Origin: an uncultured Candidatus Saccharibacteria bacterium
GTDB lineage: Bacteria; Patescibacteriota; Minisyncoccia; UBA6257; CAYRSR01
Reading direction: 5' to 3'
Length of the DNA: 64,000 nt
Assembly: GCA_964427275.1 (NCBI GenBank)
Contig: CAYRSR010000003.1
Coordinates: forward strand, 168 to 64,167
The position numbers and the translations under genes were made by a program. The notes beneath the pieces are model-generated. The model worked only from the letters and a program-made list of their open reading frames with translations, made no database searches and was not told the DNA's origin. Shown here piece after piece: positions 30,855-62,028 of the stretch. Within the stretch, counting starts at the first letter, position 1. The number at the start of each line of letters is the position of its first letter.

Positions 30855-32969
30855 ATGCTTGAATTGAATACACCACTTAATCAAGTTCCAGGTTTAGGTT
30901 ATAGATTTTTAAAAAAATTTAACAAACTGAATTTAATCACAGTTAAAGATTTACTCTGGCATTTTCCTTCTAGGTACGAAGATTTTTCCAGAGTTAAAAA
31001 AATTGCCGATGTTAGAATTGGAGAACAGCTAACTATTCAGGGACAGGTGAAAACTATTTCAGCATTCAGAACTCCTAAAAAAAGAATGAAAATAGTTCAG
31101 GCATTAATCAGTGATGGTAGTGGAACCATCCAGGCTATTTGGTTTAACCAATTTTATATTCGAACTAGACTAAAAAAAGGAACTCTAGTTAACTTGGCTG
31201 GAAAAGTTAGTGTATATAAAAATAAGCTTTGTTTAAATAATCCAACTTACGAAATTCTCAAAAACAAAGTCCCAATTCACACTGCTAGAATTGTTCCAAT
31301 TTATCCTGAAACCAAAGGACTAACCTCAAAAGGAATTCGGCATTTCATTAGAAAGATTTTGATGAATCTTAAGCCAATCCCCGAATTTCTGCCAAAATTA
31401 GCCTTAGTTGAGCTTAACTTCCCAGAAATAAACAAAGCTTTATGGCAAATTCATTTCCCTGAAAATTTATCAGAAATAAATCCAGCTAAAAAAAGATTTG
31501 CATTCCAGGATTTATTTTTACTCCAATTAAACAATTTAATTGAAAGGTGGAATATCAGAAAACATAAAGCCTATCCATTCAAAATTGATTATAAACGAAT
31601 TAAGCAACTTTTAGCCAAGCTTCCGTTTCAATTAACTATTTCTCAAAAAAAATGCCTATTTCAAATTCTAAAAGACTTACAAAATGAATATCCAATGAAT
31701 CGTTTACTTCAAGGAGAAGTTGGTTCAGGAAAAACTATTTTAAGCTTTCTGGCAGCCAATGTTGTAGCTGAACAAAACCAGCAAGTTGCCCTGCTTGCAC
31801 CTACCGAAATTTTAGCATTTCAGCATTATCAAGCTTTTAAAAAATTTTTTCCTAAGTTTGAAAAAGGAGTTTGTATTTTAACTTCCAAACAAAAAAGAAT
31901 TTTTTATTCAGAAAAATTGGAATGTAAAACTACCAAAAAAGAACTATTACCTCTAATAGAATCAGGTAAAATCAAAATAGTAATTGGTACTCAAACTTTG
32001 ATCCAAAAAGAGGTTAAATTTAGTAATTTAGCTTTAGTAGTAATTGACGAACAACATAGATTTGGCGTAAAACAAAGAGCTAAATTACTTAAAGAAGGTA
32101 CTACAAATATCCCTCACTTTCTATCTATGACTGCTACTCCAATTCCCAGAACTCTAGGTTTAGCTATTTTCGGTGACCTGGATATGTCTAGAATTGAAGA
32201 ACTTCCTAAAAATCGAAAGCCAGTAATCACCAAAATAATTCCTCCAAAAAAAAGAAAACAAGCTTATTCATTTATTAGAGCTGAAATTAAGAAAGGAAAT
32301 CAGGCTTTTGTAGTTTGTCCAAGGATAGAACCCACTAATAAAGAAGCTAATAATCTAAATAGAAAAAAATTAATCTGGGCTGAAGTAAAGGCAGTAAAAG
32401 AAGAATATCAAAAGTTATCTAAAAAAATTTTTCCCGATTTAAAAGTTGAAATGCTCCATGGGAAGATGGATTCAGAGAAGAAGGAAAAGATTATAAACCG
32501 ATTTAAAGATGGAAAAATTGATATTTTAGTTTCAACTTCAGTAATTGAAGTTGGAATTGATATTCCTAACGCTACTATTATGGTAATTGAAGGGGCAGAA
32601 AGATTTGGATTAGCTCAACTTTATCAACTCAGGGGAAGAGTTGGGAGAAGAGAAAAACAATCTTATTGCTTTTTATTCAGTGATTTAGAATCAAAAACAT
32701 CCAGACAAAGACTAGAATCAATAATTAAAGCTAAAAATGCTTTTGAGTTAGCTGAGCAGGATCTGAAACTAAGAGGACCGGGTGAATTTTTAGGAGAAAG
32801 TCAAACTGGACTCCCAGATTTAGCAATGCAAGCCTTAAATAATCCAGAATTAGTAAAAGTTTCTAGAGAAATTGCAATAAAAACCTTAAAAATTGACCCA
32901 AGCTTAAAAGCTTTTCCAGAACTAAGAAAGAAAGTGATTGAGTTTTACAAAGAAGTACATCTGGAATAA
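30855..32969 (+). CDS. recG: ATP-dependent DNA helicase RecG
   Basis: Wedge domain plus SF2 helicase motifs (GEVGSGKT, DEQHRFG, YQLRGRVGR). Confidence 0.88.
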   Translation: MLELNTPLNQVPGLGYRFLKKFNKLNLITVKDLLWHFPSRYEDFSRVKKIADVRIGEQLTIQGQVKTISAFRTPKKRMKIVQALISDGSGTIQAIWFNQFYIRTRLKKGTLVNLAGKVSVYKNKLCLNNPTYEILKNKVPIHTARIVPIYPETKGLTSKGIRHFIRKILMNLKPIPEFLPKLALVELNFPEINKALWQIHFPENLSEINPAKKRFAFQDLFLLQLNNLIERWNIRKHKAYPFKIDYKRIKQLLAKLPFQLTISQKKCLFQILKDLQNEYPMNRLLQGEVGSGKTILSFLAANVVAEQNQQVALLAPTEILAFQHYQAFKKFFPKFEKGVCILTSKQKRIFYSEKLECKTTKKELLPLIESGKIKIVIGTQTLIQKEVKFSNLALVVIDEQHRFGVKQRAKLLKEGTTNIPHFLSMTATPIPRTLGLAIFGDLDMSRIEELPKNRKPVITKIIPPKKRKQAYSFIRAEIKKGNQAFVVCPRIEPTNKEANNLNRKKLIWAEVKAVKEEYQKLSKKIFPDLKVEMLHGKMDSEKKEKIINRFKDGKIDILVSTSVIEVGIDIPNATIMVIEGAERFGLAQLYQLRGRVGRREKQSYCFLFSDLESKTSRQRLESIIKAKNAFELAEQDLKLRGPGEFLGESQTGLPDLAMQALNNPELVKVSREIAIKTLKIDPSLKAFPELRKKVIEFYKEVHLE

Positions 32970-33097
32970 ATTTTCGAAATTCTTTTAAAATTAAGGATAT
33001 CGACAGTCGGTTCGATTACTGTTACTATTATTCCAGCCAATATTAGCAAAACAACTACAACTATTAACAATTCAATCAAAGTGAATCCATTCTTCAT
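32945..33097 (-). CDS. short type IV pilin-like protein (class III signal peptide), 50 aa
   Basis: Unlisted ORF MKNGFTLIELLIVVVVLLILAGIIVTVIEPTVDILNFKRISKIYSRCTSL. It has the canonical prepilin cleavage/methylation motif G|FTLIEL with Glu at +5. It overlaps the recG 3' end by 25 nt on the opposite strand. Confidence 0.5.
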   Translation of the reverse strand: MKNGFTLIELLIVVVVLLILAGIIVTVIEPTVDILNFKRISKIYSRCTSL

Positions 33098-33525: not shown

Positions 33526-34104
33526 ATGATTATTCAGTGGTACGGAGAAAATTGTTTCAGATTAAAAATTGGAGATACATCAATTCTGACCGACCCTACT
33601 AATAAAAAACTAAAAGGAGATTTAACTATTTACACCTCATATCCGTTTAAGGATTTAGAAAAATTTCAGTCAGCTGGAATAATAAATTACCCCGGGGAAT
33701 ACGAATTAAAAAATATCTTTGTAACCGGGTTTTTAAATCCTGGTTCAAATCAGCAAACTATTAAGACAATTTATCAAATTTCCTGGAATAATTTTTTGAT
33801 TGGAATTTTAGGGTATTTGAAACCAAAAGAATTAAATGAATGGCAGAAGGAACTTGGTAATATTGACATCTTATTTATTCCGGTTGGTGGAAAGCCATTT
33901 ATTTCAATTGAACAAGCGGTTGAATTAGTGAAATATTTTAAACCTAAGTTGGTGATTCCTACTCTATTTAAGCAAATTAAGCAGGTTAGTTTATTTGCCA
34001 AGCAACTTGGAAAATTTAAATTAAAACCTCAACTTAAAATAGCTATAACCAGTTCAGGTTTAGAACGACAGGAATTGGAAATAGGTTGTTTAACCAAAAG
34101 CTAA
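33526..34104 (+). CDS. MBL-fold metal-dependent hydrolase (UPF0173-like)
   Basis: MIIQWYGENCFRL...TDP in the N-terminus, resembling the MKIQWLGHSCF-type hydrolase family. Confidence 0.55.
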   Translation: MIIQWYGENCFRLKIGDTSILTDPTNKKLKGDLTIYTSYPFKDLEKFQSAGIINYPGEYELKNIFVTGFLNPGSNQQTIKTIYQISWNNFLIGILGYLKPKELNEWQKELGNIDILFIPVGGKPFISIEQAVELVKYFKPKLVIPTLFKQIKQVSLFAKQLGKFKLKPQLKIAITSSGLERQELEIGCLTKS

Positions 34105-34108
34105 AAAA

Positions 34109-34342
34109 TTGACTATCTACCAAAAAAAGATCTGGTTAGTTTTTTTAACCGCTGTTACCATGACAATGGTGATAACTATCTGGCTAAAAACTATTGATAT
34201 TGATTTTTCTACAAGCCAGACTAAAGAATTTAAAGAGCTGAAATCAGCTTTTCAAGAAGTTAAGGAAAGTTTTCGAAAAGCAAAAAAAGAATTCCAGCAG
34301 TTACAAAACTTATCAACCACTACTACTTCAACTAGCTACTAA
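34109..34342 (+). CDS. small membrane protein (hypothetical)
   Basis: 77 aa with an N-terminal transmembrane helix and a polar coiled tail, between the MBL gene and gyrA. Confidence 0.3.
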
Positions 34343-36749: not shown

Positions 36750-37997
36750 ATGGAGTTAAGAAAAAATCAAATAATTATTTTGGGAGCTTTAGGAATAATA
36801 ATTCTATTCCTTGTTTTACTTTTTTCGGGAATTATACCTGGATTAAGACCTATAAGAAGAGTCAGGAAAATAGAGCTAGAATTCTGGGGAATAGAAGATA
36901 TTTCAGTTTATCGGGATTTTATTGATCAATTCTGTGAAAGTTATCCTAACCTAAAAATAAACTATCGAAGAATTCCAGAAAGTGATTATGAAACTGAATT
37001 AATAAACGGATTAGCCTCTTTGAAAGGACCGGATATATTAATGATTAAAAATACCTGGCTTTTGAAGCACTATGATAAAATTTCTCCTCTACCACCAGAA
37101 AGATTTGGAGTCAAAGACCTACAAAAGTTGTTTCCCAAGGTAGTTGAGCAAGATTTTGCCTTGAGCCAACGAGTTTATGCTTTACCTCTGTCAATCTATG
37201 CTTTAAGTTTGATTTATAATCAGGATATGTTAGAAACAGTCGGAATTGCTACTTTACCGGAAACCTGGCTGGAATTCCAGAAAATTGTTCCCAGGTTAAC
37301 TGAATTTGAACATGGCTCTCTGGTTAAAGCAGCTGCAGCTATTGGTGGTTCAAATAAGAGTATTCACAAGGCTACTGATTTGTTATTTGCTCTAATGCTT
37401 CAGAGTGGATGCCCAATGGTTGACAAGAAGGTTACTCGAGCTATTTTTGGTCCCGGGATAGAAGCATTAGATTTTTATACTCATTTTGCTAATGCCCAGA
37501 ATAGAGACTATACCTGGAACGAGAAATTTGGCTACTCTCTTGATGCTTTTTGTAAAGAAAAAGTAGCTATGATTTTTGACTATTCCTATATACTTCCCTT
37601 GCTGGAGCAAAAAAATCCTTATTTGAGGATAGGAATAGCTCCTCTTCCTCAATTGGATCCTGACAATCCGATAAATTATGCTGACTATTGGGGATACAGT
37701 GTATCTAATCAGAGTAAGTATCCAGAAATCAGCTGGGATTTTGTTTTAAGTCTAACTACCAACAAACAAAACGTTTATAGTTATCTTCAAAAGACCGGTA
37801 ATCCTCCAGCTTTGAGAGATTTTATAGAAGAACCCCAAACTTTAACTGCTCGGTCCTGGCCACAGGTTGATGCTAAAAAAATCAGTCAAGTCTTTAGCAG
37901 AGCAATTGAGGAGGTAATAACTGGGAAAAAGACTGTTTCTGATGTTTTAGGAGAGGTTGAGTTGCAGGTTACCGAATTAATCAGAACCAGGTTCTAG
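36750..37997 (+). CDS. extracellular solute-binding protein (ABC family 1, sugar type), orphan
   Basis: N-terminal transmembrane anchor and an SBP_bac_1-like layout. No permease or ATPase is adjacent. Confidence 0.55.
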   Translation: MELRKNQIIILGALGIIILFLVLLFSGIIPGLRPIRRVRKIELEFWGIEDISVYRDFIDQFCESYPNLKINYRRIPESDYETELINGLASLKGPDILMIKNTWLLKHYDKISPLPPERFGVKDLQKLFPKVVEQDFALSQRVYALPLSIYALSLIYNQDMLETVGIATLPETWLEFQKIVPRLTEFEHGSLVKAAAAIGGSNKSIHKATDLLFALMLQSGCPMVDKKVTRAIFGPGIEALDFYTHFANAQNRDYTWNEKFGYSLDAFCKEKVAMIFDYSYILPLLEQKNPYLRIGIAPLPQLDPDNPINYADYWGYSVSNQSKYPEISWDFVLSLTTNKQNVYSYLQKTGNPPALRDFIEEPQTLTARSWPQVDAKKISQVFSRAIEEVITGKKTVSDVLGEVELQVTELIRTRF

Positions 37998-38025
37998 TCA
38001 AAAAACAATTGAAAGTTTTAGTATT

Positions 38026-38415
38026 TTGGTTTATAATCTAAGTATGTATAAGTTTATAATCCTGGCTGGGTTAATGCCTGAATGTCCTGAAACTGGGTGC
38101 ACTTTTTGTAATTTAATGCAGTTGGGAGAAAACATCTTAGATTTTTTAATTGGGTTAGCTATTCCAGTTAGTGTTGGTTTTATTGCCTGGGGTGGAATAA
38201 TATTAATAACCGCTGGTGGTAGTGAAAGAAAAGTAAGTGAAGGTAGAAGGATTGTTACTGGTGCAATAACTGGATTAGTTATTGTGCTTTGTTCCTGGTT
38301 AATTTTAAGTACACTCCTTCAGATAATTGCCGGGCAGGAGTGGTACAAACCCTGGAAAAAAATTGAATGTCTTTCAAGTCAAAAACTAGCCAGGGTTGAA
38401 CTTAAAAGATTATGA
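38026..38415 (+). CDS. small two-helix membrane protein, VirB2/TrbC-pilin-like (paralog 1)
   Basis: Helix-GG-loop-helix layout ending ...LLQIIAG. It shares a motif with the next two ORFs. It has an N-terminal Cys cluster CPETGCTFC. Confidence 0.35.
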   Translation: MVYNLSMYKFIILAGLMPECPETGCTFCNLMQLGENILDFLIGLAIPVSVGFIAWGGIILITAGGSERKVSEGRRIVTGAITGLVIVLCSWLILSTLLQIIAGQEWYKPWKKIECLSSQKLARVELKRL

Positions 38416-38738
38416 TTTTATCAATTGTTCACAAAGTTTTAGCAGTAGAATTACCTAATCCGCTAAGGGCTGAAAGTATTGCTGAAGTGATTGAAAGAGT
38501 TATTGACGGATTAATGTGGGTAGCTACCCCGCTGGCTACCATAATGATTTTAGTGGCAGCTTTTCAGTATATGACTTCTGGGGGAAATCCGGAAAACATA
38601 AATCGAGCCAAAAGAACTCTACTTTGGACAGTAATTGGTTATGGAATAATTTTGGTTTCAAGAGGAATAATAGAAATAGTTCAACAACTATTAGGAGCTC
38701 CAGCTTCACCTCCAACTCCACCATTAATTTCAGTTTAA
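38412..38738 (+). CDS. small two-helix membrane protein, VirB2/TrbC-pilin-like (paralog 2)
   Basis: Shared motif AAFQYMTSGGNPENINRAKRTLLWTVIGYGIILVSRGIIEIVQQLLGA. Confidence 0.35.
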   Translation: MILSIVHKVLAVELPNPLRAESIAEVIERVIDGLMWVATPLATIMILVAAFQYMTSGGNPENINRAKRTLLWTVIGYGIILVSRGIIEIVQQLLGAPASPPTPPLISV

Positions 38739-38806
38739 AAACATTAAACTTGACAAGAGGGTAATTAATGGTTAAATAAGATAAAGGTCGAGAGTTTGAA
38801 TAAAAA

Positions 38807-39139
38807 ATGAAGATTATCAAACAAATTTTACCTCTAGTAGTGTTATTTTCAGTAGTGTCACTTCCCTTATTAGCTATCGAGCATGCTCCTGCACCGGTTA
38901 GAAGCATTGAGGATGTAATTGCTATATTAAACCGAGTTGTTGATTGGTTCTTTACTATACTGATGATAGTAGCAGTAATATTTATTTTTGTGGCTGCTGT
39001 TGGATATTTAACCAGTGGCGGGAAGGAGGATAAGATTATTAAAGCTCAAAGACAGTTTATTTATGCTGTAGTAGCAATTGGCATAGCTCTAGTTGCTCGA
39101 GGAATAGAATTTATTGTTAGACAATTACTTGGAGCTTAA
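38807..39139 (+). CDS. small two-helix membrane protein, VirB2/TrbC-pilin-like (paralog 3)
   Basis: Signal peptide plus AAVGYLTSGGKEDKIIKAQRQFIYAVVAIGIALVARGIEFIVRQLLGA. An AAAGGTCGA motif sits 14 nt upstream. Confidence 0.35.
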   Translation: MKIIKQILPLVVLFSVVSLPLLAIEHAPAPVRSIEDVIAILNRVVDWFFTILMIVAVIFIFVAAVGYLTSGGKEDKIIKAQRQFIYAVVAIGIALVARGIEFIVRQLLGA

Positions 39140-39205
39140 GTTTAATTGGTGTTTTTAGTTGAATTTGAAGCTCTGAATATTTCAGGGTTTCTAGTTTGTA
39201 GTTCC

Positions 39206-39287
39206 GGGCAGATGGCGGAACTGGAATACGCGTACGGCTTAGGACCGTATCCCGAAAGGGGTGAGGGTTCGAGTCCCTCTCTGCCCA
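39206..39287 (+). tRNA. tRNA-Leu (TAG)
   Basis: Acceptor GGGCAGA/TCTGCCC, anticodon stem-loop UACGG-CUUAGGA-CCGUA, long variable arm, T-loop TTCGAGT. Confidence 0.8.
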
Positions 39288-39454
39288 CACTTAGTATAAA
39301 CTTACTTAATTAAACTGGACTTTTAAGGTCGATTTATACCTGTCTTGATTTTAACTTTTTATACTTTCTTTTATGTCTTCCTTGACCGGGAGAGATAAGC
39401 TAGAAAGTATAAAAATAGTAGAGGAAGGCAGGGAAAGTAATTCTCAAGTTCTCA

Positions 39455-39522
39455 AGAACATTAGAATACTAGCAGAAGAAAAAGGACAACTCTTAAGTTC
39501 TTGAGAACATTAGAATAATTTC
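39455..39522. promoter_or_regulatory. two 22-bp direct repeats with a palindromic core GTTCTYRAGAAC (putative ArsR-family operator)
   Basis: AGTTCTCAAGAACATTAGAATA and AGTTCTTGAGAACATTAGAATA. A third copy (GTTCTTAAGAACATTGGAGTA) is at 39863-39886. Confidence 0.4.
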
Positions 39523-39599: not shown

Positions 39600-39890
39600 A
39601 TGAAATTGCCACTTAATAGGAAATATAATTATCGTCAACTGGAGAGAATAGTGAAAGGTTTTTCAAATCACCGAAGGATTGAGATATTAAGACTTCTGAA
39701 AAAATATCCTGGGCTTTCAGTAGTTGAAATTTTTGAAAAACTCAATGTTAATTTTAAAACAATTGCTGGGCACATTCAGCGATTAACCATTGCTGGTTCG
39801 GTAATGAAAAAATCCTTGGGAGCAAGCGTCTGTCATCGACTTGCAGAAAGAGGAGAGGTAGTTCTCAAGTTCTTAAGAACATTGGAGTAA
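39600..39890 (+). CDS. ArsR/SmtB-family transcriptional regulator
   Basis: Winged HTH (NHRRIEILRLLKKYPGLSVVEI...FKTIAGHIQRLTIAGSV). Confidence 0.65.
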   Translation: MKLPLNRKYNYRQLERIVKGFSNHRRIEILRLLKKYPGLSVVEIFEKLNVNFKTIAGHIQRLTIAGSVMKKSLGASVCHRLAERGEVVLKFLRTLE

Positions 39891-39939: not shown

Positions 39940-40572
39940 ATGAAAATTACTATTATTTACGACAATACTACTTTTAAAAAAGGCCTTCAGGCAAATTGGG
40001 GTTTTTCTGCTCTGATAGAAGTTAAAGATATACCCAAAATTTTATTTGATACTGGTGGAAATGGAAAAATTTTACTTTCTAATATGGAAAAGTTAGCGAT
40101 TGATCCTTTATCAATTGAAGAGGTTTTTATTTCTCATTTACATTTTGACCATATCGGTGGGCTTTCTGAACTTTTAAAAGTAAATCCAAATATTAAAAAA
40201 ATTTATGTCCCTTCTTCAATGGGTCTTGAAAACGAAATAATTTTAAAAGAGCCCACAGAAATTTATAAAAATATCTTTTCCACCGGAGAACTGGAAGGAA
40301 TAGAACAATCAATGGGAGTGATTACAGAAAAGGGAATTGTTTTAATTGTCGGTTGTTCTCATCCTTATATGGGAACTATTTTAGATGCTGGTCGCCGATT
40401 TGGTGAGATTTATGCCATTGTTGGCGGAATGCATGGATTTTCTGAATTTGAGTTATTTAAAGATATAAATCTAATTTGTCCTACTCACTGCACTCAATAT
40501 AAATCAAAACTTAAAGAGCTTTATCCCCAAAAATACATTGAAGGAGGAGTAGGAAGAATAATTGAAATTTAA
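39940..40572 (+). CDS. MBL-fold metallo-hydrolase (COG1237-like)
   Basis: YDNTT...GLQANWGFSALIE...ILFDTGGNG and HxHxDH (HLHFDHIGG). Confidence 0.6.
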   Translation: MKITIIYDNTTFKKGLQANWGFSALIEVKDIPKILFDTGGNGKILLSNMEKLAIDPLSIEEVFISHLHFDHIGGLSELLKVNPNIKKIYVPSSMGLENEIILKEPTEIYKNIFSTGELEGIEQSMGVITEKGIVLIVGCSHPYMGTILDAGRRFGEIYAIVGGMHGFSEFELFKDINLICPTHCTQYKSKLKELYPQKYIEGGVGRIIEI

Positions 40573-40693
40573 AGAGAGCAAAAATGAAAATTACAAAAAA
40601 TAAAATATATTTTTCTTATCATACTAATTGCTATGATTTGCAATTTGGGTTCAGAGATATTTCAAATAGAAAAACCAACAATACTTTTTATGT

Positions 40694-41617
40694 TTGAACT
40701 TATTGCAATCTTGCCAGGTCATTTTAGCTATTTCAGTACTCAAAAATTTAAAACAGCAAAAAATGAAATATAAAATATTTGTTTTAATTATAATTTTAGT
40801 TTTGATAGGAGGAGGGATTTTTTTAATTCAAAAAGAGAAGGTTTCTAAAACAGAAATTTCTATTGAAAAGGAGCTTAAAGTTAAAAAAGAAAAAGTTTTA
40901 AAAGAAGAAGAAAAAGAAAAATCAGAGGTTAGTTTAATTTCTGTCTATGATAATTATCAGGTTAACCCAGAATTAAAAACTGCCTGGGGATTTGGACTGG
41001 TAATTGAAACTTCAAATGAAAAAATTTTATTTGATACCGGAGGCAACTCAGGTATTTTGCTTTTTAATATGAAAAAATTAGGGGTTGATCCTGAATCAAT
41101 TGACAAAGTGGTAATTTCTCATATTCATGGTGACCATATAGGAGGACTTGAAGGATTTTTAAAGGAAAATCCAAAGGTAAAAGTTTTTATCCCGGCTTCT
41201 TTTCCAGATTCAGTAAGGGAAATGATAAAAAGTTATGGAGCAAATTTTATTAATGTCTCAAGGTCTCAAAAAATTTCAGATTTTATTTTTTCAACCGGCG
41301 AACTTTATGGTCCGCCAGATGAGCAATCTTTAGTGATTCTTTCAAAGAAAGGTTTAATTATAATTACCGGCTGTGCTCATCCAGGAATTGTTAATATTGT
41401 TAAAAAAGCAAAAGAAATGTTTCCTCAAAAAGAAGTTTATCTAGTTTTAGGTGGTTTTCATCATCCACCAAAAAAAGTAGTTTCTGAATTAAAAAAATTA
41501 AAAGTAAAAAAAGTTGCTCCCTCTCATTGCTCTGGAGATGAAATTAGAGAATTATTTAAAAAAGAATATCAAAACGATTTCATAGAAAATGGAGTTGGAA
41601 AAATTATTAGTATATAA
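40694..41617 (+). CDS. MBL-fold metallo-hydrolase paralog with an N-terminal transmembrane anchor and a KE-rich linker
   Basis: YDNYQVNPELKTAWGFGLVIE...ILFDTGGNSG and HIHGDHIGG. The true start is probably the Met at about 40763. Confidence 0.6.
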   Translation: MNLLQSCQVILAISVLKNLKQQKMKYKIFVLIIILVLIGGGIFLIQKEKVSKTEISIEKELKVKKEKVLKEEEKEKSEVSLISVYDNYQVNPELKTAWGFGLVIETSNEKILFDTGGNSGILLFNMKKLGVDPESIDKVVISHIHGDHIGGLEGFLKENPKVKVFIPASFPDSVREMIKSYGANFINVSRSQKISDFIFSTGELYGPPDEQSLVILSKKGLIIITGCAHPGIVNIVKKAKEMFPQKEVYLVLGGFHHPPKKVVSELKKLKVKKVAPSHCSGDEIRELFKKEYQNDFIENGVGKIISI

Positions 41618-41644: not shown

Positions 41645-42973
41645 ATGAAGAGAATAAAATATAAAATTGGAGTAATGGAAAAAGCAGGTAGAAGTAAAAC
41701 TTTATCTGAGAAGCTAGTAAAAACTGCAAAAGTTGTGGGAGAAGAGATCGCCAGACAGGGTTGTGTATTAGTCACAGGTGCCTGTATGGGTGTTCCCGAT
41801 GTTGCAGCTAAAGTAGCCTTAGACAAAGGAGGCTTGGTTCTTGGATTTTCTCCGGCCAAGAGCTTAAAAGAGCATGTTGAGCCACCTTTCTCTTATCCTT
41901 ATCCTTCTCAAAATATGGAGTTGATTTTTACTAATTTAGATAAGATTGGCCGAAATGTTTTATCAATAATTGAGTGTGATGGAATAATATGCATTGGTGG
42001 AGGAATGGAAACTTTAAATGAATTTTCTATAGCAGCTCATGAGGGAAAGGTAATAGGAGTATTAGAGGGTTTTTGGGGATTAATAGAGAAAATTCTTCCA
42101 GAAATCGAAAATCAGGTTTCTGAAAAATCTGGTGCTGTTTTAATTAAAGATAGAAATCCAAAAAGATTGGTAAGAAGAGTAATTCAAGAAGTTGAAAAAA
42201 GAAGGAAAAAGATAAGAAAAGAAATTCCTTTAACTTTTGAAAACAAAAGAGGTGAGCAGTTAGTTGGGATACTTCATTTACCCGCAAAAGAAAAACCTCC
42301 TTTAGCAGTTTTAGTTCATGGATTTGGGCAGACCAAATCAAAAAGAAGCCTGGTAAGATTGGCCAGGTCTTTAGAAAGACAAGGAATTGCCGTTTTTCGG
42401 TTTGATTTTTCTGGATGTGGGGATTCACAGGGAGAATTGGAAAATACTACACTCAAAAGGCAGATTGAAGATTTAAATGTGGTAATGAAAGGTATTTTTA
42501 AGCAAGTAAATCTAGATAGTAGAAGAATAGCTTTTGTAGGCGAGAGTCTGGGATGTGTAGCAGCAACATTGTATTACAAAAATTATTCAGACATTTCTTT
42601 AAAGACAATGGTTTTTTGGGCTCCTGCTTTCTGTCAGAAAAAACTTATTCCAATCTGGAATTCAAAAGAACAGTTAAAAGAATGGAAGAAAAAAGGATAT
42701 TTAATAGTTAAGGATAAAAAAATTGGCTTAGAATATTTGAAGGAAAATGAAAATAAAGATTATTCTTCTATTCTTTTAAAGATGCATTTACCAATTTTAG
42801 TTCTCCATGGAAAAGAAGATGAAGTGGTTCCTTTAGAGTTTTCAGAAAAATTAGCAAAAAAATATAAAAACATAAAACTGGTTAAGCTGAACACTGACCA
42901 TAAATTTGAAAATTATTTTGAACAGCAAAAATTAATAAAAGAAACTGTAAGCTGGATTAAAAAATACCTTTAA
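41645..42973 (+). CDS. fusion protein: LOG/TIGR00725-family (SLOG) nucleotide-binding domain plus a C-terminal alpha/beta-hydrolase
   Basis: N-terminal GCVLVTGACMGVPDVAAKVALDKGGLVLGFSP...ICIGGGMETLNEF. C-terminal LAVLVHGFGQ...FDFSGCGDSQG...VGESLG (GxSxG). Confidence 0.6.
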   Translation: MKRIKYKIGVMEKAGRSKTLSEKLVKTAKVVGEEIARQGCVLVTGACMGVPDVAAKVALDKGGLVLGFSPAKSLKEHVEPPFSYPYPSQNMELIFTNLDKIGRNVLSIIECDGIICIGGGMETLNEFSIAAHEGKVIGVLEGFWGLIEKILPEIENQVSEKSGAVLIKDRNPKRLVRRVIQEVEKRRKKIRKEIPLTFENKRGEQLVGILHLPAKEKPPLAVLVHGFGQTKSKRSLVRLARSLERQGIAVFRFDFSGCGDSQGELENTTLKRQIEDLNVVMKGIFKQVNLDSRRIAFVGESLGCVAATLYYKNYSDISLKTMVFWAPAFCQKKLIPIWNSKEQLKEWKKKGYLIVKDKKIGLEYLKENENKDYSSILLKMHLPILVLHGKEDEVVPLEFSEKLAKKYKNIKLVKLNTDHKFENYFEQQKLIKETVSWIKKYL

Positions 42974-44108: not shown

Positions 44109-44795
44109 ATGGAAAAGGATTTAATTTTGGAAGTGAAAAATCTTTGGGTAGAATTAGATAAACTGAAGGTTATAGAAAATCTTTCTTTTAGAGTAAAAGA
44201 AGGAGAAGTTTTAACAATTTTGGGACCTAATGGAGCAGGAAAAACGGTTCTTTTAAAAACTTTACTTGGAATTTTTCCTTATCAGGGAGAAATTATTTGG
44301 AAAAAAGGAGTAAAAATTGGGTATGTACCTCAGAGGTTACCATTCATAAAAAATATCCCAATGAGCGTAAAGGATTTTTTTGAATTGAAAGGAATTTCAG
44401 AAACTGAAATAAAGAGTATTCTAAAAGAGATAGACCTTGAAGAGGTTTTTGAAAAAGGAATAGGAAATCTTTCCTCAGGACAATTTCAAAGGGCTTTGAT
44501 TGGCTGGGCTTTGGCAAGAAATCCTAATGTTTTACTTTTTGATGAACCTACTGCAGAAATTGATATTCCAGGAAAAGAAACTATCTATTCTTTAATAAAA
44601 AGATTGAAAGAAAAAAGAAATCTAACTGTTTTACTGGTTACCCATGATCTAAACATAGTTTATAAATTTTCCGATTATATAATTTGTCTGAATAAAACAG
44701 CAATTTGCCAGGGCAAGCCAGAGATAATTCTTACTCCTGAAAACTTACAAAAGCTTTATCGCCACGAAATAAAATTTTACAAACATACCCATTAA
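44109..44795 (+). CDS. metal (Zn/Mn)-type ABC transporter ATP-binding protein
   Basis: Walker A GPNGAGKT, signature LSSGQFQRA and Walker B LLFDEP. Confidence 0.85.
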   Translation: MEKDLILEVKNLWVELDKLKVIENLSFRVKEGEVLTILGPNGAGKTVLLKTLLGIFPYQGEIIWKKGVKIGYVPQRLPFIKNIPMSVKDFFELKGISETEIKSILKEIDLEEVFEKGIGNLSSGQFQRALIGWALARNPNVLLFDEPTAEIDIPGKETIYSLIKRLKEKRNLTVLLVTHDLNIVYKFSDYIICLNKTAICQGKPEIILTPENLQKLYRHEIKFYKHTH

Positions 44796-44799
44796 AATT

Positions 44800-45564
44800 A
44801 TGAACTTTCAACTTATTTTAAGCTTAGTTTCAGGAATTTTTATTGGGGGAGTAGCTGGACTTTTGGGTACTTTGATGCTTTCCAAAAGAATGGCCTTGGT
44901 TGCTGGGCCTTTAGGACATTTAGCTTTACCAGGAATTGCTTTAGCTTTAATTTATAACTTTGATGTTTCCTTGGGTGCATTTCCTTTTATTATTTTAGGA
45001 ATAATTTTAATATGGCTGTTTGAGATAAAAACAAAGCTACCAGTTGAAGCTTTAACTGCCATTGTTTTTGCTTTTGGAGTGGCAATTTCTTTTTTACTCT
45101 TGCCGATTGAAAAAGCAAAAACTGCATTGGTAGGAGATATTACAAAGATTTCTTTAACAGAAACACTGATGATTATTATTTTATCTATCTTAATTGTTGC
45201 CTTGGTAAAAAGGATTTATTCTAAAATAGTTTTAATCAACATTTCAGAAGACTTAGCTAAGGCAGAAAAAATTAATGTTAAAAGATATAATTTTCTCTAC
45301 CTGGGAATTATTGGGATAATGGTTGCTTTAGGAGTAAAAGTAGTAGGAGGACTTTTAACTGCTGCTTTAGTAGCTATTCCTGCCTCTACTTCTAGGAACT
45401 TAAGCAGAAACTTATTTCAATACAATTCTTTAAGCATCTTTTTTGGTGCTTTTTCAGCTCTTTTTGGGATTTTACTTTTTAAGATTACTCATTTTCCGGC
45501 TGGTCCTTTGATAATTATCATTTCGACATTTTTCTTTTTAACTTCTTTAGTTTTTAAAAGATAG
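44800..45564 (+). CDS. metal ABC transporter permease (ZnuB-like)
   Basis: 254 aa, about 8 transmembrane helices, ABC-3 family layout. Confidence 0.8.
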   Translation: MNFQLILSLVSGIFIGGVAGLLGTLMLSKRMALVAGPLGHLALPGIALALIYNFDVSLGAFPFIILGIILIWLFEIKTKLPVEALTAIVFAFGVAISFLLLPIEKAKTALVGDITKISLTETLMIIILSILIVALVKRIYSKIVLINISEDLAKAEKINVKRYNFLYLGIIGIMVALGVKVVGGLLTAALVAIPASTSRNLSRNLFQYNSLSIFFGAFSALFGILLFKITHFPAGPLIIIISTFFFLTSLVFKR

Positions 45565-45602: not shown

Positions 45603-47981
45603 ATGAGATTCTTTCTTTTAGATTTGAATTATATTATTGATTCTTCTGGAAAGACAAAAGCACGCTTGTTTGGAAAGGATGAAAAAGGGAAAGTGGTAAA
45701 GTCTCTTATTGATTTTTCTCCTTATTTTTTTGTTTTGCCAGAGAAAGGAAAGGAAAAACAAGCAATAAGGGATATTGAAAAGTTACTTGCTTTGAAAAAG
45801 AAAAAGGTAGAAAAAATAGAAATTGTAAAGAAAAAATTAAATGGAAAAGAAAAAGCCCTTATTAAAATTACCTGTTTTACTCCTCCTGATACTTCAAATA
45901 TAAGAGACATTGTAAAGAAGCTGGAGAAAAAAAGAGGAGGAAAAGGAACAGTCTTAGAAGAGTATCAATATTCTCTTTCTTTTTCTGATTCTTTTTTGCT
46001 TGAAAATAGGATTTATGAACCTAGTTGGGTTGAAGAAAAGAATGGAAAAATTACTTCTTCTAATATTGAAAAAGAGCCCCAACTAAAGACAATTGCCTTT
46101 GATATTGAAATTAATATTGAAAATGGAAAAGAGAAAATTATTATGATTTCTTATTTTGGAGATAATTTTAAAAAAGTAGTTACTTATAGAAAAAAAGGTA
46201 GATATCCTGATTTTGTAAAACTGGTAAAAAACGAAAAAGAACTTTTGGAAGATTTTGAAGCTACCATTAAAGAAAAAGATCCAGATATTATTCTAACTTA
46301 TAATGGTGATGCTTTTGATTTCCCAATGATAAGAGAGAGAGCAAAAGAGTACAAGTTGAAATTAAAAATCGGAAGAGCTAATGATGAATTCAAGTTTTTA
46401 AGGAGAGGAAGAGCATCAGCAGCTCATATTTCAGGAAGGGTTCATGTTGATATTTTCCCTTTTGTAAATAACATTCTTTCTCCGAGTCTTGAAACTGAAG
46501 TTTTAACTTTAAATGCGGTCTCAGGTGAACTTTTAGAAGATAAAAAAATCGAAATGGATTTTCAGGAGTTGCTGGAGGCCTGGCGAAAGAAAAAAGATTT
46601 ACAGAAGTTAGCCTTATATTGCCTAAAGGATTCTGAACTTACTTTTCGACTTTTCAATTTACTTTCTTCTCAAATCTTTGAACTTTCAAAAATTTCAGGT
46701 CAGCTTCTGTTTGATGTTTCAAGAATGAGCTATTCACAACTGGTAGAAAGCTTTTTAACTAAAAAAGCCCATTATTTAGGAGAGGTAATCCCCAATCAAC
46801 CAAAATTTGATGAGATTTTAAGAAGAAAGCAATTTACCTTTGCTGGTGGTTATGTTAAAGAACCAATTGGGGGAATTCATAAAAACATTGCGGTGGTAGA
46901 TTTTCGTTCTCTTTATCCTTCAATCATTGCTACATTCAATATTTCTCCGGAAACTTTAAATTGTTCTTGTTGTAGGGACAACGGGTTTAAGGTTCCTGAA
47001 TCAAATTTTTGGTTTTGTAAAAAGAAAAAAGGATTTGTTTCTTCAGTAATTAGAGAGCTTTTGAAAGAAAGGTGGGAGATTAAAAAGAGAATGAAAAAGT
47101 TAAAAGAAGATTCAAAAAAATATCATCTTTTAAATACTCGTCAGCAGGTTGTAAAAATTATTACCAATGCTACCTATGGTTATTTTGGTTTCCCTGCTTC
47201 AAAATGGTACTGTAAGGAGTGTGCTCAGTCTGCAGCTTCATGGGGAAGAAGTTTGATTAGAAGAGTAATGGAAAAAGCAAGTGAAAATTTTGTGGTGGTT
47301 TATGGAGATACTGATTCGGCATTTTTAAAGCCAAAAGAAAAAAAGGAGAAAACTCTTAAAAAAGATATTGAAAAGTTCCTAGAAAAAATCAATAAAGCCC
47401 TACCAGGAATAATTGAGTTGGATTTGCAGGGCTTTTATAAAAGAGGAATTTTTATCCCCAGAGGTTTAATTAAAGGCACAGCAAAGAAAAGATATGCTCT
47501 TTTAGATGAAAAAGGAAAGCTCTTAATAAGGGGACTTGAAACTGTAAGAAAGGATTGGTGCAATCTGGCAAAAGAACTTCAAAGAAAAGTTTTAGAATTT
47601 GTACTTAAAAAAGAGGACATTAAAGGAGCTATTAAATATACCCAGAAAACTATTTCAAAATTGAAGTCAAGAAAGATTTCATTAAGAGATTTGGTAATTT
47701 ATGAACAGTTAACCAAGCCAATTGAAAAGTATAAATCTTTATCACCTCATTTAGCCTGTGCTAAAAAAATGAAAGAAAAAGGAGAAGAAGTAGAACCTGG
47801 AACAATTATTATGTTTGTAATTTCAAAAAAGGAAGGAAAAATTTCTGACAAGGCAATTCCTTATGAGTGGGCAAAAGTTTCTGATGTTGATGTAGACTAT
47901 TATATTCATCACCAGATATTACCAGCAGCATTAAGAGTTCTTTCTGTTTTTAAAGTTGAGGAAAAGGACTTAATTGTTTAA
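45603..47981 (+). CDS. family B DNA polymerase with 3'-5' exonuclease
   Basis: Exo I FDIE, Exo II YNGDAFDFP, Exo III YCLKDSELTF. Pol motif A DFRSLYPSII, KKRY motif and motif C YGDTDS. Confidence 0.8.
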   Translation: MRFFLLDLNYIIDSSGKTKARLFGKDEKGKVVKSLIDFSPYFFVLPEKGKEKQAIRDIEKLLALKKKKVEKIEIVKKKLNGKEKALIKITCFTPPDTSNIRDIVKKLEKKRGGKGTVLEEYQYSLSFSDSFLLENRIYEPSWVEEKNGKITSSNIEKEPQLKTIAFDIEINIENGKEKIIMISYFGDNFKKVVTYRKKGRYPDFVKLVKNEKELLEDFEATIKEKDPDIILTYNGDAFDFPMIRERAKEYKLKLKIGRANDEFKFLRRGRASAAHISGRVHVDIFPFVNNILSPSLETEVLTLNAVSGELLEDKKIEMDFQELLEAWRKKKDLQKLALYCLKDSELTFRLFNLLSSQIFELSKISGQLLFDVSRMSYSQLVESFLTKKAHYLGEVIPNQPKFDEILRRKQFTFAGGYVKEPIGGIHKNIAVVDFRSLYPSIIATFNISPETLNCSCCRDNGFKVPESNFWFCKKKKGFVSSVIRELLKERWEIKKRMKKLKEDSKKYHLLNTRQQVVKIITNATYGYFGFPASKWYCKECAQSAASWGRSLIRRVMEKASENFVVVYGDTDSAFLKPKEKKEKTLKKDIEKFLEKINKALPGIIELDLQGFYKRGIFIPRGLIKGTAKKRYALLDEKGKLLIRGLETVRKDWCNLAKELQRKVLEFVLKKEDIKGAIKYTQKTISKLKSRKISLRDLVIYEQLTKPIEKYKSLSPHLACAKKMKEKGEEVEPGTIIMFVISKKEGKISDKAIPYEWAKVSDVDVDYYIHHQILPAALRVLSVFKVEEKDLIV

Positions 47982-48392
47982 ATGAAATTAAACCAGATAA
48001 TTAAAGGGTTTAAAGAATTTGAAAGGTTAAAAGAAGATAAACTAAAAGGAATTTATCTTTTGCTTATTAAAGTAAAGAAAGATACTTCTATTCAAATTGG
48101 TAAATTGAGGAAAATAAGGTTTGATAAAGGAAATTATCTTTATGTTGGTTCAGCTCAAAATAACTTGAGGGCAAGGATAAAAAGACACTTTAGAAAAAAT
48201 AATAAAACTAAATTCTGGCACATTGATTATTTACTTTCCAATAAAAATGTGAAAATTAAAAAGGTATTTTATAAGCTTGCAAAAAAGGAGGAAGAATGCA
48301 AAGCTGCCCGGTTAGCTTTAAAATATGGCAAGCCAATTAGAGGTTTTGGTTGCTCGGATTGTCAGTGTAGGAGTCATCTTATAAAAATTTAA
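47982..48392 (+). CDS. GIY-YIG domain protein (DUF123-like)
   Basis: GIYLLLIK-(~28 aa)-YLYVGSAQNNL…R…H, 136 aa. Confidence 0.5.
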   Translation: MKLNQIIKGFKEFERLKEDKLKGIYLLLIKVKKDTSIQIGKLRKIRFDKGNYLYVGSAQNNLRARIKRHFRKNNKTKFWHIDYLLSNKNVKIKKVFYKLAKKEEECKAARLALKYGKPIRGFGCSDCQCRSHLIKI

Positions 48393-48393
48393 G

Positions 48394-49278
48394 TTACTTT
48401 GATATTTTTAATTTTCTCCTTCTTGTTGCATGAAATGACTGATATACCTGTTTGAGCTGTCGATTGGTTAAATGTGTATATACCTGGGTAGTAGAAATGT
48501 TTTTATGCCCTAAAAGAGCTTGAACTGATCGAAGATCAGCTCCATTAATTAGTAAATCGGTAGCAAAAGAATGTCTTAACTTGTGAGGAGATACTCTTTT
48601 TAGAATTCCCGCTTTTCTGGCATAAAAATCTACAATTCTTTCCACTGTTCTTGGGGATACTGGGAAAAGCTTTGGGCTCACATCCTTTCTTTTGTTTAGA
48701 TACTTTTTTAAGGCTTGTTTAGCTGATTCAGATAAAAAAACTAATCTTAATTGTCCTCCTTTTCCCCTGATTGTAATTTCTCCTTTATCTATATCAATAT
48801 ATCTTTCTAAACTACATAATTCAGATAACCTTAATCCGGTTGAAAACAAAACTTCCAAAATAGCCTTATCTCTTAAGGACTTTAGGTCGTTACCCTGAGG
48901 AGCGTCCAGCAATCTTAAAAGTTCCTGGTAATCTAAAACTTCTATTTGTCTTGGGGGAATTCTTGGAAGTTCTATTTTATCTGGAGATAAAACTTTAAAA
49001 TCTCTTTTAATTAAATATTTTAAGAAATTTCTTAATGCAATTATGTAATAGGATTGGGTATTTTTTTGGAGAGGTTTTCCAGATGCAGTTTTCTTTCTGG
49101 CCAACCACAATCTAAATTCTCTTACTTTATCTTTGGTTATATCCTTTTCGGTTTTAATTTTAGAAAATTTAAAGAAGGTCTCTAGATAATGTCGGTAATT
49201 TCTTCTAGTTCTAATGGAGCGATTTTTTTCAATTTCAAGATAATCTAGATAATCTTTTAAAAGAATGTTGATATCCAT
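48394..49278 (-). CDS. tyrosine recombinase XerC/XerD-like
   Basis: The C-terminal LRHSFATDLLINGADLRSVQALLGHKNISTTQVYTHL matches the Xer catalytic region (R..HxxR...Y). Confidence 0.8.
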   Translation of the reverse strand: MDINILLKDYLDYLEIEKNRSIRTRRNYRHYLETFFKFSKIKTEKDITKDKVREFRLWLARKKTASGKPLQKNTQSYYIIALRNFLKYLIKRDFKVLSPDKIELPRIPPRQIEVLDYQELLRLLDAPQGNDLKSLRDKAILEVLFSTGLRLSELCSLERYIDIDKGEITIRGKGGQLRLVFLSESAKQALKKYLNKRKDVSPKLFPVSPRTVERIVDFYARKAGILKRVSPHKLRHSFATDLLINGADLRSVQALLGHKNISTTQVYTHLTNRQLKQVYQSFHATRRRKLKISK

Positions 49279-49895: not shown

Positions 49896-50051
49896 TATGA
49901 CGGAAAAAGTTTTAAGCCTTTACATTGATTATAAGTCTTAAACATTAAAGGTCAAATTAATTATTCCTACAACAGAAGATATTTATAAAACTTCTTTAGA
50001 TAAATTACAGAACTAATCTGGCAAGAGAATAGCAGGTACTTAGAAAGCTTG

Positions 50052-50123
50052 TGGACCGATGGGGACTTGAACCCCAGACCTTCGCAGTGCAAGTGCGACG
50101 CTCTACCGCTGAGCTATCGGCCC
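50052..50123 (-). tRNA. tRNA-Ala (TGC)
   Basis: Acceptor GGGCCGA with the G3·U70 wobble, and anticodon loop CUUGCAC. Confidence 0.85.
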
Positions 50124-50131
50124 AGTTGTTG

Positions 50132-50203
50132 TGCGCACGCCTAGATTCGAACTAGGGACCTCTGCTTTATCAGAGCAGCGTTCTACCCCTGAACTACGTG
50201 CGC
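50132..50203 (-). tRNA. tRNA-Ile (GAT)
   Basis: Acceptor GCGCACG/CGTGCGC, anticodon stem-loop CUGCU-CUGAUAA-AGCAG. Confidence 0.85.
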
Positions 50204-50464: not shown

Positions 50465-50989
50465 TTATTGTCTAAAAAAAATTCTTCCCTTGATAGTCAT
50501 AGTTATTCGACCTGAGCCGATATCTCGACTGAAACTTAAACTATCTAAGCTAATTGGAAAGTTAGAATTTTCCAGACTTACAAGAAAATCTAGAATTTTT
50601 CTAAAAACTCCGGAAAGGCTCATAACAAACTCTATTTCTCCAGGGACAGTTCTAGTACCAGCCTTTTCACTACCAAAAGAAAAACTAAAACCTACCTCAT
50701 TTTGTCTGGCTAGTTCTTCTAGTTCTCGGGAAAGCTGTAATAATCTATCTTTTTCTGGTAAAGCATTTTCTAAAATACTGAATAATGTCTGAGCTTTTTC
50801 AAATTGTTTCTTAAAAGAAGCTAGGGAAGATAAAGACTGACTTTGTCTTAAAATTTCCATTCTTTGGGTCACTACTTTTCTGGCTTGGTTTTGAATATCT
50901 TTAGCTAGCCCCCATAATAAGCTGCCTAAAATCACAATTATACCAAGACTAATTGAAAGTCTTTTAATTAACTTTTTATGGAAATCCAT
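50465..50989 (-). CDS. membrane-anchored protein with a PilO-like layout (N-terminal transmembrane helix, coiled coil, C-terminal alpha/beta domain)
   Basis: The call rests on topology and a weak resemblance only. Confidence 0.3.
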   Translation of the reverse strand: MDFHKKLIKRLSISLGIIVILGSLLWGLAKDIQNQARKVVTQRMEILRQSQSLSSLASFKKQFEKAQTLFSILENALPEKDRLLQLSRELEELARQNEVGFSFSFGSEKAGTRTVPGEIEFVMSLSGVFRKILDFLVSLENSNFPISLDSLSFSRDIGSGRITMTIKGRIFFRQ

Positions 50990-51053: not shown

Positions 51054-51911
51054 ATGCCTGAAATTAAAAAAATCAATTTAACTGATAGAGATTATCCAGT
51101 TTTTCTTAGAGAGATACCCTATCCTCCATCTCCGCTTTACCTAAAAGGAGTTTTTCCAGCATCGAATTTAATAAAAATTGCCATAGTGGGGACCAGAAAA
51201 CCCACTGAACTAGGGATTCATTTAGCTAAAAAAATTGCTAAAGATCTGGCTAAGCAGGGTTTGGTAATTGTTAGTGGTTTAGCTTTGGGAATTGACAGCG
51301 CAGCTCATCAAGGGTGCTTGGATGGGGGTGGACAAGCCATAGCGGTATTGGGTAGTGGTTTGGATAAAATATATCCTGTTACTAACAGAACTTTAGCTCA
51401 AAGGATTTTAAATCAAAGAGGAGCTTTAATTTCGGAATACCCCCCAGGTACTCCTGCATTACCGCATCACTTTCCAGCTCGCAATCGAATAATTAGTGGT
51501 TTATCTCAAGCAGTTGTAGTAATTGAAGCTCCTAGAAAATCTGGTGCATTAATTACAGCTAAATTTGCTTTGGAACAGAATCGGGAGGTATTTGTGGTTC
51601 CAGGACCAGCAAATCATCTTAATTATCAGGGCTCGCACTGGTTAATTAGAGAAGGAGCTAGGTTAGTTTGTACGGCAGAGCAGATTTTAGAAGATTTAAA
51701 CATTAAACCATTTCAACTAAAATTAAATCAAAAGGAAAAGATTATTCTAGAAGCTATCCAGCAAAGTAAAGTTCCTTTAACAGTTGACAAGTTAGTAGAA
51801 GTTACTAAACTTGACTTTCAAGCGGTAAATAAAAGTTTAACTACCTTGCTAGTTGAAGGATTGGTTGAGGAAACCTTAGCTGGATACCAAATAAATACAA
51901 AATCAAAATGA
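51054..51911 (+). CDS. dprA: DNA processing protein DprA/Smf
   Basis: IAIVGTRKPT...IVSGLALGIDSAAHQG...GSGLDKIYP. Confidence 0.85.
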   Translation: MPEIKKINLTDRDYPVFLREIPYPPSPLYLKGVFPASNLIKIAIVGTRKPTELGIHLAKKIAKDLAKQGLVIVSGLALGIDSAAHQGCLDGGGQAIAVLGSGLDKIYPVTNRTLAQRILNQRGALISEYPPGTPALPHHFPARNRIISGLSQAVVVIEAPRKSGALITAKFALEQNREVFVVPGPANHLNYQGSHWLIREGARLVCTAEQILEDLNIKPFQLKLNQKEKIILEAIQQSKVPLTVDKLVEVTKLDFQAVNKSLTTLLVEGLVEETLAGYQINTKSK

Positions 51912-62026: not shown

Positions 62027-62028
62027 TT

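Follow-up and report, generated by a model that had tools for sequence, protein, structure and literature searches.

A tandem trio of VirB2/TrbC-like pilin genes adjoining a solute-binding protein gene on a patescibacterial chromosome

The 64-kb stretch of DNA analysed here (all 64,000 nucleotides of it, henceforth the window) carries between positions 38026 and 39139 three adjacent open reading frames (ORFs) for small pilin-like proteins of the VirB2/TrbC type, and directly ahead of them a gene for a solute-binding protein (SBP). The organism is a bacterium of the Patescibacteria, or Candidate Phyla Radiation (CPR), of the Paceibacteria/Parcubacteria type, and the named homologues of the pilins and of the SBP are all patescibacterial (Wolfebacteria, Azambacteria, Moranbacteria, Yanofskybacteria and Paceibacterota). 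The four genes are the following (lengths in amino acids, aa).

36750-37997, plus strand: SBP, MalE-type, membrane-anchored, 415 aa (SBP_bac_1 2.3e-24, SBP_bac_8 2.4e-18)
38074-38415, plus strand: pilin copy 1, 113 aa from an ATG start (PF18895 37.3 bits); alternative starts at TTG 38026 (129 aa) and ATG 38044 (123 aa)
38412-38738, plus strand: pilin copy 2, 108 aa (PF18895 49.2 bits, PF04956 32.0 bits)
38807-39139, plus strand: pilin copy 3, 110 aa (PF18895 38.7 bits)

A preliminary description of this DNA had reported three tandem, paralogous small proteins here. The ORF listing agrees with it on the coordinates, and the three ORFs are co-directional on the plus strand. Paralogy is borne out by pairwise comparison: copies 2 and 3 share 44% identity over 89 aa (E 6e-22), and copy 1 is 21–24% identical to the other two (E ~1e-5). 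The start of copy 2 overlaps the stop of copy 1 (ATGA). The length of 129 aa first given for copy 1 probably has to be reduced to 113 aa, counted from the ATG at 38074 and not from the TTG at 38026. Other gene callers made it 113 or 123 aa long, and we favour the ATG at 38074 because copy 1 is leaderless both in the window (MPECPETGC...) and in the closest relative, locus L096 (MSKLLPDCPNGIC...). An assembly error behind this short N-terminus was considered and rejected, since independent assemblies are identical and the closest relative is equally leaderless.

The DNA of the pilin region was the same, base for base, in two independent assemblies, and a third (L003:509-841) differed by seven single-nucleotide polymorphisms (SNPs) in copy 3 and by none in copy 2. 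All seven fell within 64 nt (window positions 38929-38992); five were synonymous and two were conservative V->I replacements. Given the identical assemblies and the mostly synonymous SNPs, we take the pilin genes to be real and constrained and not an artefact of assembly. The clustering of the SNPs in copy 3 may reflect a small recombination tract or local microdiversity.

That these proteins are related to the VirB2/TrbC-like pilins of type IV secretion systems (T4SS), as the preliminary description had proposed pending searches with hidden Markov models (HMMs), is supported by the PF18895 and PF04956 models. All three copies scored above the gathering threshold of PF18895 (T4SS_pilin, 26.6 bits). 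With PF04956 (TrbC/VirB2, cut-off 27.9 bits) copy 2 passed, and copies 1 and 3 remained sub-threshold at 14.6 and 18.6 bits; the match to NCBIfam NF045849 (Mbov_0395 family pilin-like conjugal transfer protein) was also sub-threshold. An exhaustive HMMER search with a profile made from the three copies collected 58,633 cluster representatives at E <= 1e-3; copy 2 used alone in a word-indexed search retrieved nothing but itself. When copy 2 was compared to plasmids by tblastn, the hits were haloarchaeal genes annotated as 'pilin', 30–38% identical over 60–70% of its length. Judged by these profile matches, the three ORFs are VirB2/TrbC-superfamily pilin-like proteins (PF18895). Many of the database proteins have 2–8 tandem pilin domains behind one signal peptide, among them P0002 (606 aa, seven pilin domains with short linkers), P0003 (820 aa) and P0004, and such multi-domain proteins would be fused versions of arrays.

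The hydrophobic–turn–hydrophobic layout that had been read from the sequence was recovered by a hydrophobicity scan, which placed two transmembrane (TM)-like segments in each copy (19 residues with a Kyte-Doolittle score of at least 1.6). The loop between them is short in every copy and consists of T(A/S)GG followed by K/R-rich residues. The longer motif (Y/I)xTSGG(N/K)xE...RGIExIVxQLLGA, originally ascribed to the whole trio, holds for copies 2 and 3 and fails for copy 1, which reads LITAGGSERK...SWLILSTLLQIIAGQ. The CPETGCTFC cysteine cluster of copy 1 and the Pro-rich tail of copy 2 (APASPPTPPLISV) are present as described, and the position-2 protein of L096 has a Pro-containing C-terminal tail as well. 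AlphaFold2 (AF2) models are helical hairpins. In copy 3, helices span residues 2–25, 34–69 and 74–109 (predicted local distance difference test, pLDDT, 73.6); in copy 1 they span 20–56 and 61–95, with pLDDT 42–56 at both termini. A Foldseek search with the pilin models gave no matches, and when the sequences of copies 2 and 3 were compared with the PDB the output was either empty or limited to designed proteins at E ~1. Copy 3 is the only one with a canonical Sec signal peptide (MKIIKQILPLVVLFSVVSLPLLA, cut before IEHA), in the form of an extra N-terminal hydrophobic leader. In copies 1 and 2 just 10–11 residues precede the mature-type motif, the mature N-terminus of copy 2 being of the 'NPL' type.

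Small size, tandem genes and the cysteine cluster of copy 1 could also suggest secreted effectors, as the preliminary description had allowed, or bacteriocin-like peptides or holin-like lysis proteins. Yet two long hydrophobic helices fill most of each protein, the pilin-family matches lie above curated cut-offs, the neighbourhood has no genes for processing, immunity, lysins or export, and the core chromosomal site beside gyrA is conserved across the lineage. We consider this family of explanations very improbable, and the effector alternative is unsupported. The other fallback of that description, a CPR surface filament, survives only in the sense that it is the pilin reading in other words.

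The SBP had been mentioned as lying ahead of the pilins, which it does, and had been treated as incidental; yet no other partner of the array is as well conserved. The protein is full length, with the PF01547 match extending over residues 53–341, a single N-terminal TM segment (residues 8–26), no lipobox cysteine and an invariant NYADYWGY motif. Compared with the PDB, its profile matched oligosaccharide SBPs (5ci5, at 1.4e-31; TMBP, 1eu8; Lin1841; MalE), and the alignments to 5ci5, 1eu8 and 5ysb covered ~390 positions. The neighbours of the gene are gyrA and the pilins, with no permease or ATPase gene adjacent; the sole ATP-binding cassette (ABC) genes in the window, for an ABC ATPase and an ABC-3 family permease, lie at 44109-45564. 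Across ~80 related loci, no permease or ABC ATPase family recurred beside the SBP.

With the SBP as search handle we collected five patescibacterial loci from a GTDB scan and 80 metagenome loci (30–46% identity), and identified the pilin ORFs in them by a local hmmsearch with pilin profiles. A same-strand pilin ORF started between -250 and +700 nt from the SBP stop in 66 of the 70 loci that had at least 400 nt of downstream sequence. The association was strongly one-sided, with 197 pilin ORFs downstream of the SBP (361 kb of sequence) against two upstream (430 kb). The SBPs concerned are diverse (55 clusters at 70% identity, 23 at 50%) and the arrays range from one to seven ORFs. The association also holds in the opposite direction: loci fetched by the position-1 pilin alone (L090, from Ca. 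Wolfebacteria, L092 and L094) carry the SBP too, in the order Lactamase_B_3 – small ORF – gyrA – (methyltransferase) – SBP – pilins. A distant pilin (17% identity) came from a locus without the SBP. In L096, a 585-kb contig whose SBP is 52% identical, the layout is that of the window, including the three pilins. The SBP and the pilin trio thus form a conserved chromosomal unit that appears to be new.

SBP genes without a permease of their own are known from conjugation. PrgZ and TraC, orphan SBPs from the pheromone-responsive conjugative plasmids of enterococci, are peptide binders of the OppA-like kind (SBP_bac_5); they supply a chromosomal Opp permease and in this way regulate conjugation. 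The likeness lies in an SBP gene that lacks its own permease and is genetically associated with a Gram-positive-type T4SS function. The window SBP differs from them in being a MalE-like sugar binder (SBP_bac_1), TM-anchored and chromosomal, whose gene adjoins pilins and not regulators.

In some relatives, giant surface proteins are encoded between the SBP and the small pilins: L006:11280-15209 (1,309 aa), L007:13973-20602 (2,209 aa) and the first ORFs of L056, L023 and L047. They contain PKD, fn3 and SBBP domains and a T4SS_pilin domain at their end, and could be pilus-anchored adhesins. No gene for such a protein lies at the pilin site of the window. The published survey of pilin arrays in this group reported that no adhesins were detected in Patescibacteria (PMC12102498).

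The pilins are the distal part of a larger cluster, which is vertically inherited and belongs to the core chromosome: (Lactamase_B_3 – small ORF –) gyrA – SBP – pilins 1-2-3 – hairpin/tRNA-Leu. Its remaining features are these.

33526-34104, plus strand: Lactamase_B_3-fold protein (PF13483 4.1e-18)
34109-34342, plus strand: small membrane protein, 77 aa
34344-36746, plus strand: gyrA, 800 aa, recognised by sequence; ends 4 nt before the SBP start
38009-38037, plus strand: promoter-like TTGAAA-17 nt-TATAAT, 11 of 12 consensus matches, between the SBP stop and copy 1
39167-39191, plus strand: terminator-like hairpin with a T-rich tail, 11 pairs and a 3-nt loop (pattern match only)
39206-39288, plus strand: tRNA-Leu(UAG), the downstream boundary of the module (ARAGORN; Rfam tRNA 55.9 bits)

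The Lactamase_B_3 and small ORF pair precedes gyrA – SBP – pilins in L090, L092, L094 and L096, and the Lactamase_B_3 ORF was found in 14 related loci. In about half of the related loci the gene immediately ahead of the SBP encodes a GyrA homologue (the one in L006 matched DNA_topoisoIV at 1.3e-168). In Wolfebacteria- and Yanofskybacteria-type relatives the GyrA contains an intein (L090:1148-4780 and L094:3787-7650, with LAGLIDADG in L094); the window GyrA has none. The promoter-like site is a consensus match only, as the region has just as many of these sites as would be expected from shuffled sequence.

The window around this cluster is housekeeping chromosome. It encodes, among others, PheRS, AlaRS, ribosomal proteins, rpoA, sigma factors and DnaG, as well as GroEL, RecG, GyrA, TopA and transketolase, and the recurrent neighbours in related loci are of the same kind (S1, FtsH, ComM, RodZ, RecA, LeuRS and FtsK). 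A mobile element was rejected as the source of the array, which has no integrase beside it and a core-chromosomal position conserved across lineages.

The order of the three pilins is itself conserved. In 57 of 64 loci the ORF in position 1 had copy 1 as its nearest counterpart among the three, and the best matches of copy 2 in relatives were mostly in position 2 and those of copy 3 in position 3 or later. Where the three copies had their best matches in three different ORFs, the order was collinear in 16 of 19 loci (chance 1/6, binomial p = 2e-10, for loci that are not phylogenetically independent). Because order and subfamily identity are kept across SBP lineages that share only 30–50% identity, the divergence of the paralogues is ancient and position-specific and not a recent diversification.

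This bears on the idea that such arrays supply interchangeable variant pilins for host-range adaptation or antigenic variation, as has been proposed for Bartonella and Anaplasma and suggested for the arrays of Patescibacteria (PMC12102498). The low mutual identity of the copies (21–44%) and the variable length of the arrays among relatives (1–7 ORFs) are what one would expect of variants. However, the constancy of order and subfamily just described, the invariant Cys/Trp signature that only copy 1 possesses and the mostly synonymous nature of the SNPs between samples in copy 3 all argue against this idea, and we regard it as improbable.

The pilins of position 1 form a subfamily of their own, marked by four conserved cysteines, of which three lie N-terminally and one C-terminally. 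Its signature reads (L/I)VPCG...CxxC(D/H)L...N(I/V)I(D/N)F – TM1 – loop – TM2 (..W.I.N)...PWxxIxC, which in copy 1 takes the form PxC...CxxC...W...PWxxIxC. Among 76 position-1 homologues C19, C22 and C109 were invariant, and C14, W85 and W104 were at least 90% conserved (residue numbers of the 123-aa form of copy 1). Both termini of the hairpin are expected to lie outside the cell, and we therefore infer disulfides between the N- and C-terminal segments: bonds between the N-terminal cysteines and C109 probably tie the extracellular termini together, in a staple region that the AF2 model of copy 1 predicts with low confidence.

Joined termini have a precedent among the conjugative pilins TrbC (RP4), VirB2 (Ti plasmid) and TrhA (R27), which are cyclised from N- to C-terminus (PMC12037004, PMC13434634). 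The position-1 pilin is conceptually similar in that its termini carry conserved residues that could be joined. In the cyclic pilins the closure is a peptide bond made by a dedicated peptidase, whereas here cysteines would stand in place of cyclisation. With these pilins and with TraA (F) the window proteins share the two-helix hairpin, the basic loop and homology at the HMM level, copy 2 being above the PF04956 cut-off. The conjugative pilins differ in being single major subunits of diderm systems, with long leaders and with genes inside the T4SS operon, while the window has three differentiated paralogues in a monoderm, two of them leaderless, with no T4SS adjacent.

Pilin arrays have already been published for Patescibacteria. 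VirB2-like pilins were found in 1,948 VirB4-containing assemblies of this group, and near virB4 in only 1,135 of them; 441 arrays of 2–11 pilin genes, with a mean identity of ~25%, were recorded in 383 assemblies (Quinonero-Coronel et al. 2025, PMC12102498). An array was defined there as at least two pilin genes of low mutual identity, in tandem or with one non-pilin gene between them, in a genome of Patescibacteria, and was sought with PF18895 and PF04956 (PMC12102498). The window trio is of this make, with three adjacent genes, 21–44% mutual identity, the same Pfam families, a monoderm CPR host, a chromosomal location and no relaxase nearby. Since the Pfam families are the same and all named homologues are patescibacterial, the window array is of the published kind, and the core finding, three VirB2-like paralogues, is confirmatory. 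For Ca. Southlakia epibionticum one such array has proved essential (Wang et al. 2023, PMC10633639; PMC12857230); it lies inside a T4SS gene cluster, whereas the array of the window lies beside gyrA. A 2025 review regards the patescibacterial system as unique among monoderms for its potential conjugative pili (PMC12857230). We found no mention in the literature, within the limits of our search, of the link to an SBP, the position next to gyrA, the fixed order of paralogues or the four-cysteine subfamily.

Outside this group, a 'pilin' of the haloarchaeal plasmid pNATPE02 of Natrinema pellirubrum (WP_280513034.1) belongs to the same small pilin family and is similar to copy 2. It heads a cluster that includes a 'type IV secretory system conjugative DNA transfer family protein' and a 'TraM recognition domain' protein, and differs from the window in having a single pilin gene, no SBP and no array.

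Taken together, we favour a heteromeric pilus of the VirB2 type, made from the three paralogues by a T4SS encoded elsewhere and with the SBP as its glycan-binding partner, a reading to which we give a probability of roughly 0.6. Each pilin would insert in the cytoplasmic membrane as a hairpin, its two termini facing outwards and its basic loop facing the cytoplasm; copy 3 would do so by way of Sec and the leaderless copies 1 and 2 probably by a YidC-type route. The subunits would then be extracted by a VirB4/VirB6/VirB3-type machine, encoded at another place in the genome, and polymerised into a surface pilus, along the lines described for other Patescibacteria, and this pilus would serve contact with the host cell. 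The roles of the paralogues would be non-redundant, for example one major subunit with priming or minor subunits, and not those of interchangeable antigenic variants. The disulfides predicted for the position-1 pilin would do the work that head-to-tail cyclisation does in TrbC, VirB2 and TrhA. For the co-inherited SBP the most likely ligand is an oligosaccharide, perhaps a glycan of the host envelope, and the protein would act with the pilins as a receptor, an adhesin or an assembly cue and not as a component of an ABC importer.

Several observations weigh against such a pilus. The preliminary description had remarked that no T4SS genes lie nearby, and the Pfam scan, which covered nearly every plausible ORF of 100 aa or more in the window (but not a 314-aa ORF at 63042-63986 on the minus strand), bears this out: it found no VirB4, VirB6, VirB3, VirD4 or relaxase. 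In ~32 long related loci none of these genes lay within 10 kb of the module, with one exception, L039:19361-21301, a DUF87 ATPase with weak TrwB/T4SS-DNA_transf matches located 8 kb away behind unrelated genes; of all the P-loop ORFs of 400 aa or more in the related loci, no other looked T4SS-like. A convincing signal peptide is missing from copies 1 and 2, while most of their orthologues have one, and fold searches could not separate the pilins from other helical hairpins. The literature we examined describes no observed pilus of such proteins in any Patescibacteria. As T4SS genes are missing near the module, its dependence on a T4SS is suggested by the family to which the pilins belong and by published work, and the part played by the SBP alongside the pilins is likewise put forward as a conjecture.

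The main rival is a T4SS-independent membrane complex in which the two-TM subunits would stay in the membrane, dock the SBP and take part in glycan sensing or uptake, with no pilus at all. The nearly universal adjacency of SBP and pilins without T4SS genes in the neighbourhood, the absence of leaders from copies 1 and 2, and an SBP that is full-length and resembles functional oligosaccharide binders but has no ABC permease adjoining it would all suit this complex. On the other hand, the pilin family is genetically tied to T4SS clusters elsewhere (the Natrinema plasmid; PMC12102498), the cluster has no energising component, and the giant PKD/fn3 proteins of the relatives, ending in a pilin domain, fit a surface fibre better than a channel. 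On balance the complex seems unlikely to us. We know of no transporter or sensor built from two-TM hairpins of the pilin family.

An extension of the pilus interpretation would make the gyrA-linked SBP and the three position-specific pilins a dedicated and so far undescribed T4SS sub-system of Patescibacteria, with a heteromeric pilus whose first subunit is 'pseudo-cyclised' by disulfides and with a membrane-anchored SBP that, by recognising a host envelope glycan, would control assembly or the targeting of the host. The giant PKD/fn3 proteins of the relatives would then be the pilus-borne adhesins so far missing from Patescibacteria. We offer this proposal as tentative and think it less likely than not.

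Other features of the window deserve a brief record. Overlapping the end of recG, a 50-aa ORF (32945-33097, minus strand) starts with MKNGFTLIELLIVVVVLL, a type IV prepilin-like N-terminus, and may be a truncated or very short pilin. Beyond the tRNA-Leu gene, two copies of a 30-nt direct repeat (39439-39517, 87% identical), each with a palindrome-like TTCTCAAGAA/TTCTTGAGAA, precede a winged-helix (HTH_24) gene (39600-39890) and are likely operator sites. Directly after the HTH gene, at 39940-41617 and 41645-42973, come two tandem paralogous genes for metallo-beta-lactamase-fold proteins and then one for a SLOG (LDcluster4)-alpha/beta-hydrolase fusion protein. The region 45603-49278 encodes a family-B DNA polymerase (792 aa) followed by a DUF123/GIY-YIG protein and a tyrosine recombinase on the opposite strand; it adjoins tRNA-Ala and tRNA-Ile (50051-50203) and may be the remnant of an integrated element. 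At 58337-63060 a peptidase A24-like membrane protein, three radical-SAM proteins and a DUF2334/polysaccharide-deacetylase protein are clustered. A 1,118-aa protein (21057-24413, plus strand) with a PG_binding_1 domain only and a weak fn3-like match is probably a large cell-surface protein; a local HMM search found no pilin domain in it. ComEC (9480-10652), DprA (51054-51911) and a PilO-like protein (50465-50989, minus strand) are scattered along the window, in keeping with the dependence on DNA uptake and type IV pili that is known for Patescibacteria.

Patescibacteria represent a large part of bacterial diversity, and their way of life is attachment to other microbes. In the only species of theirs that is genetically tractable, the T4SS and the pilin array are essential. 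Within the limits of the literature search, an SBP-coupled, position-specific and T4SS-distal pilin module appears to be undescribed. The conserved order of the paralogues predicts a division of labour among the three pilins, and the cysteines that are invariant in position 1 lead one to expect a particular arrangement of disulfides there. For annotation there is a warning in these results, as an 'extracellular solute-binding protein' beside gyrA in such genomes is probably not part of a transporter. The SBP is a candidate ligand-binding component, and a large and diverse subset of the arrays is hard-wired to such a sugar-binding protein of measurable specificity.

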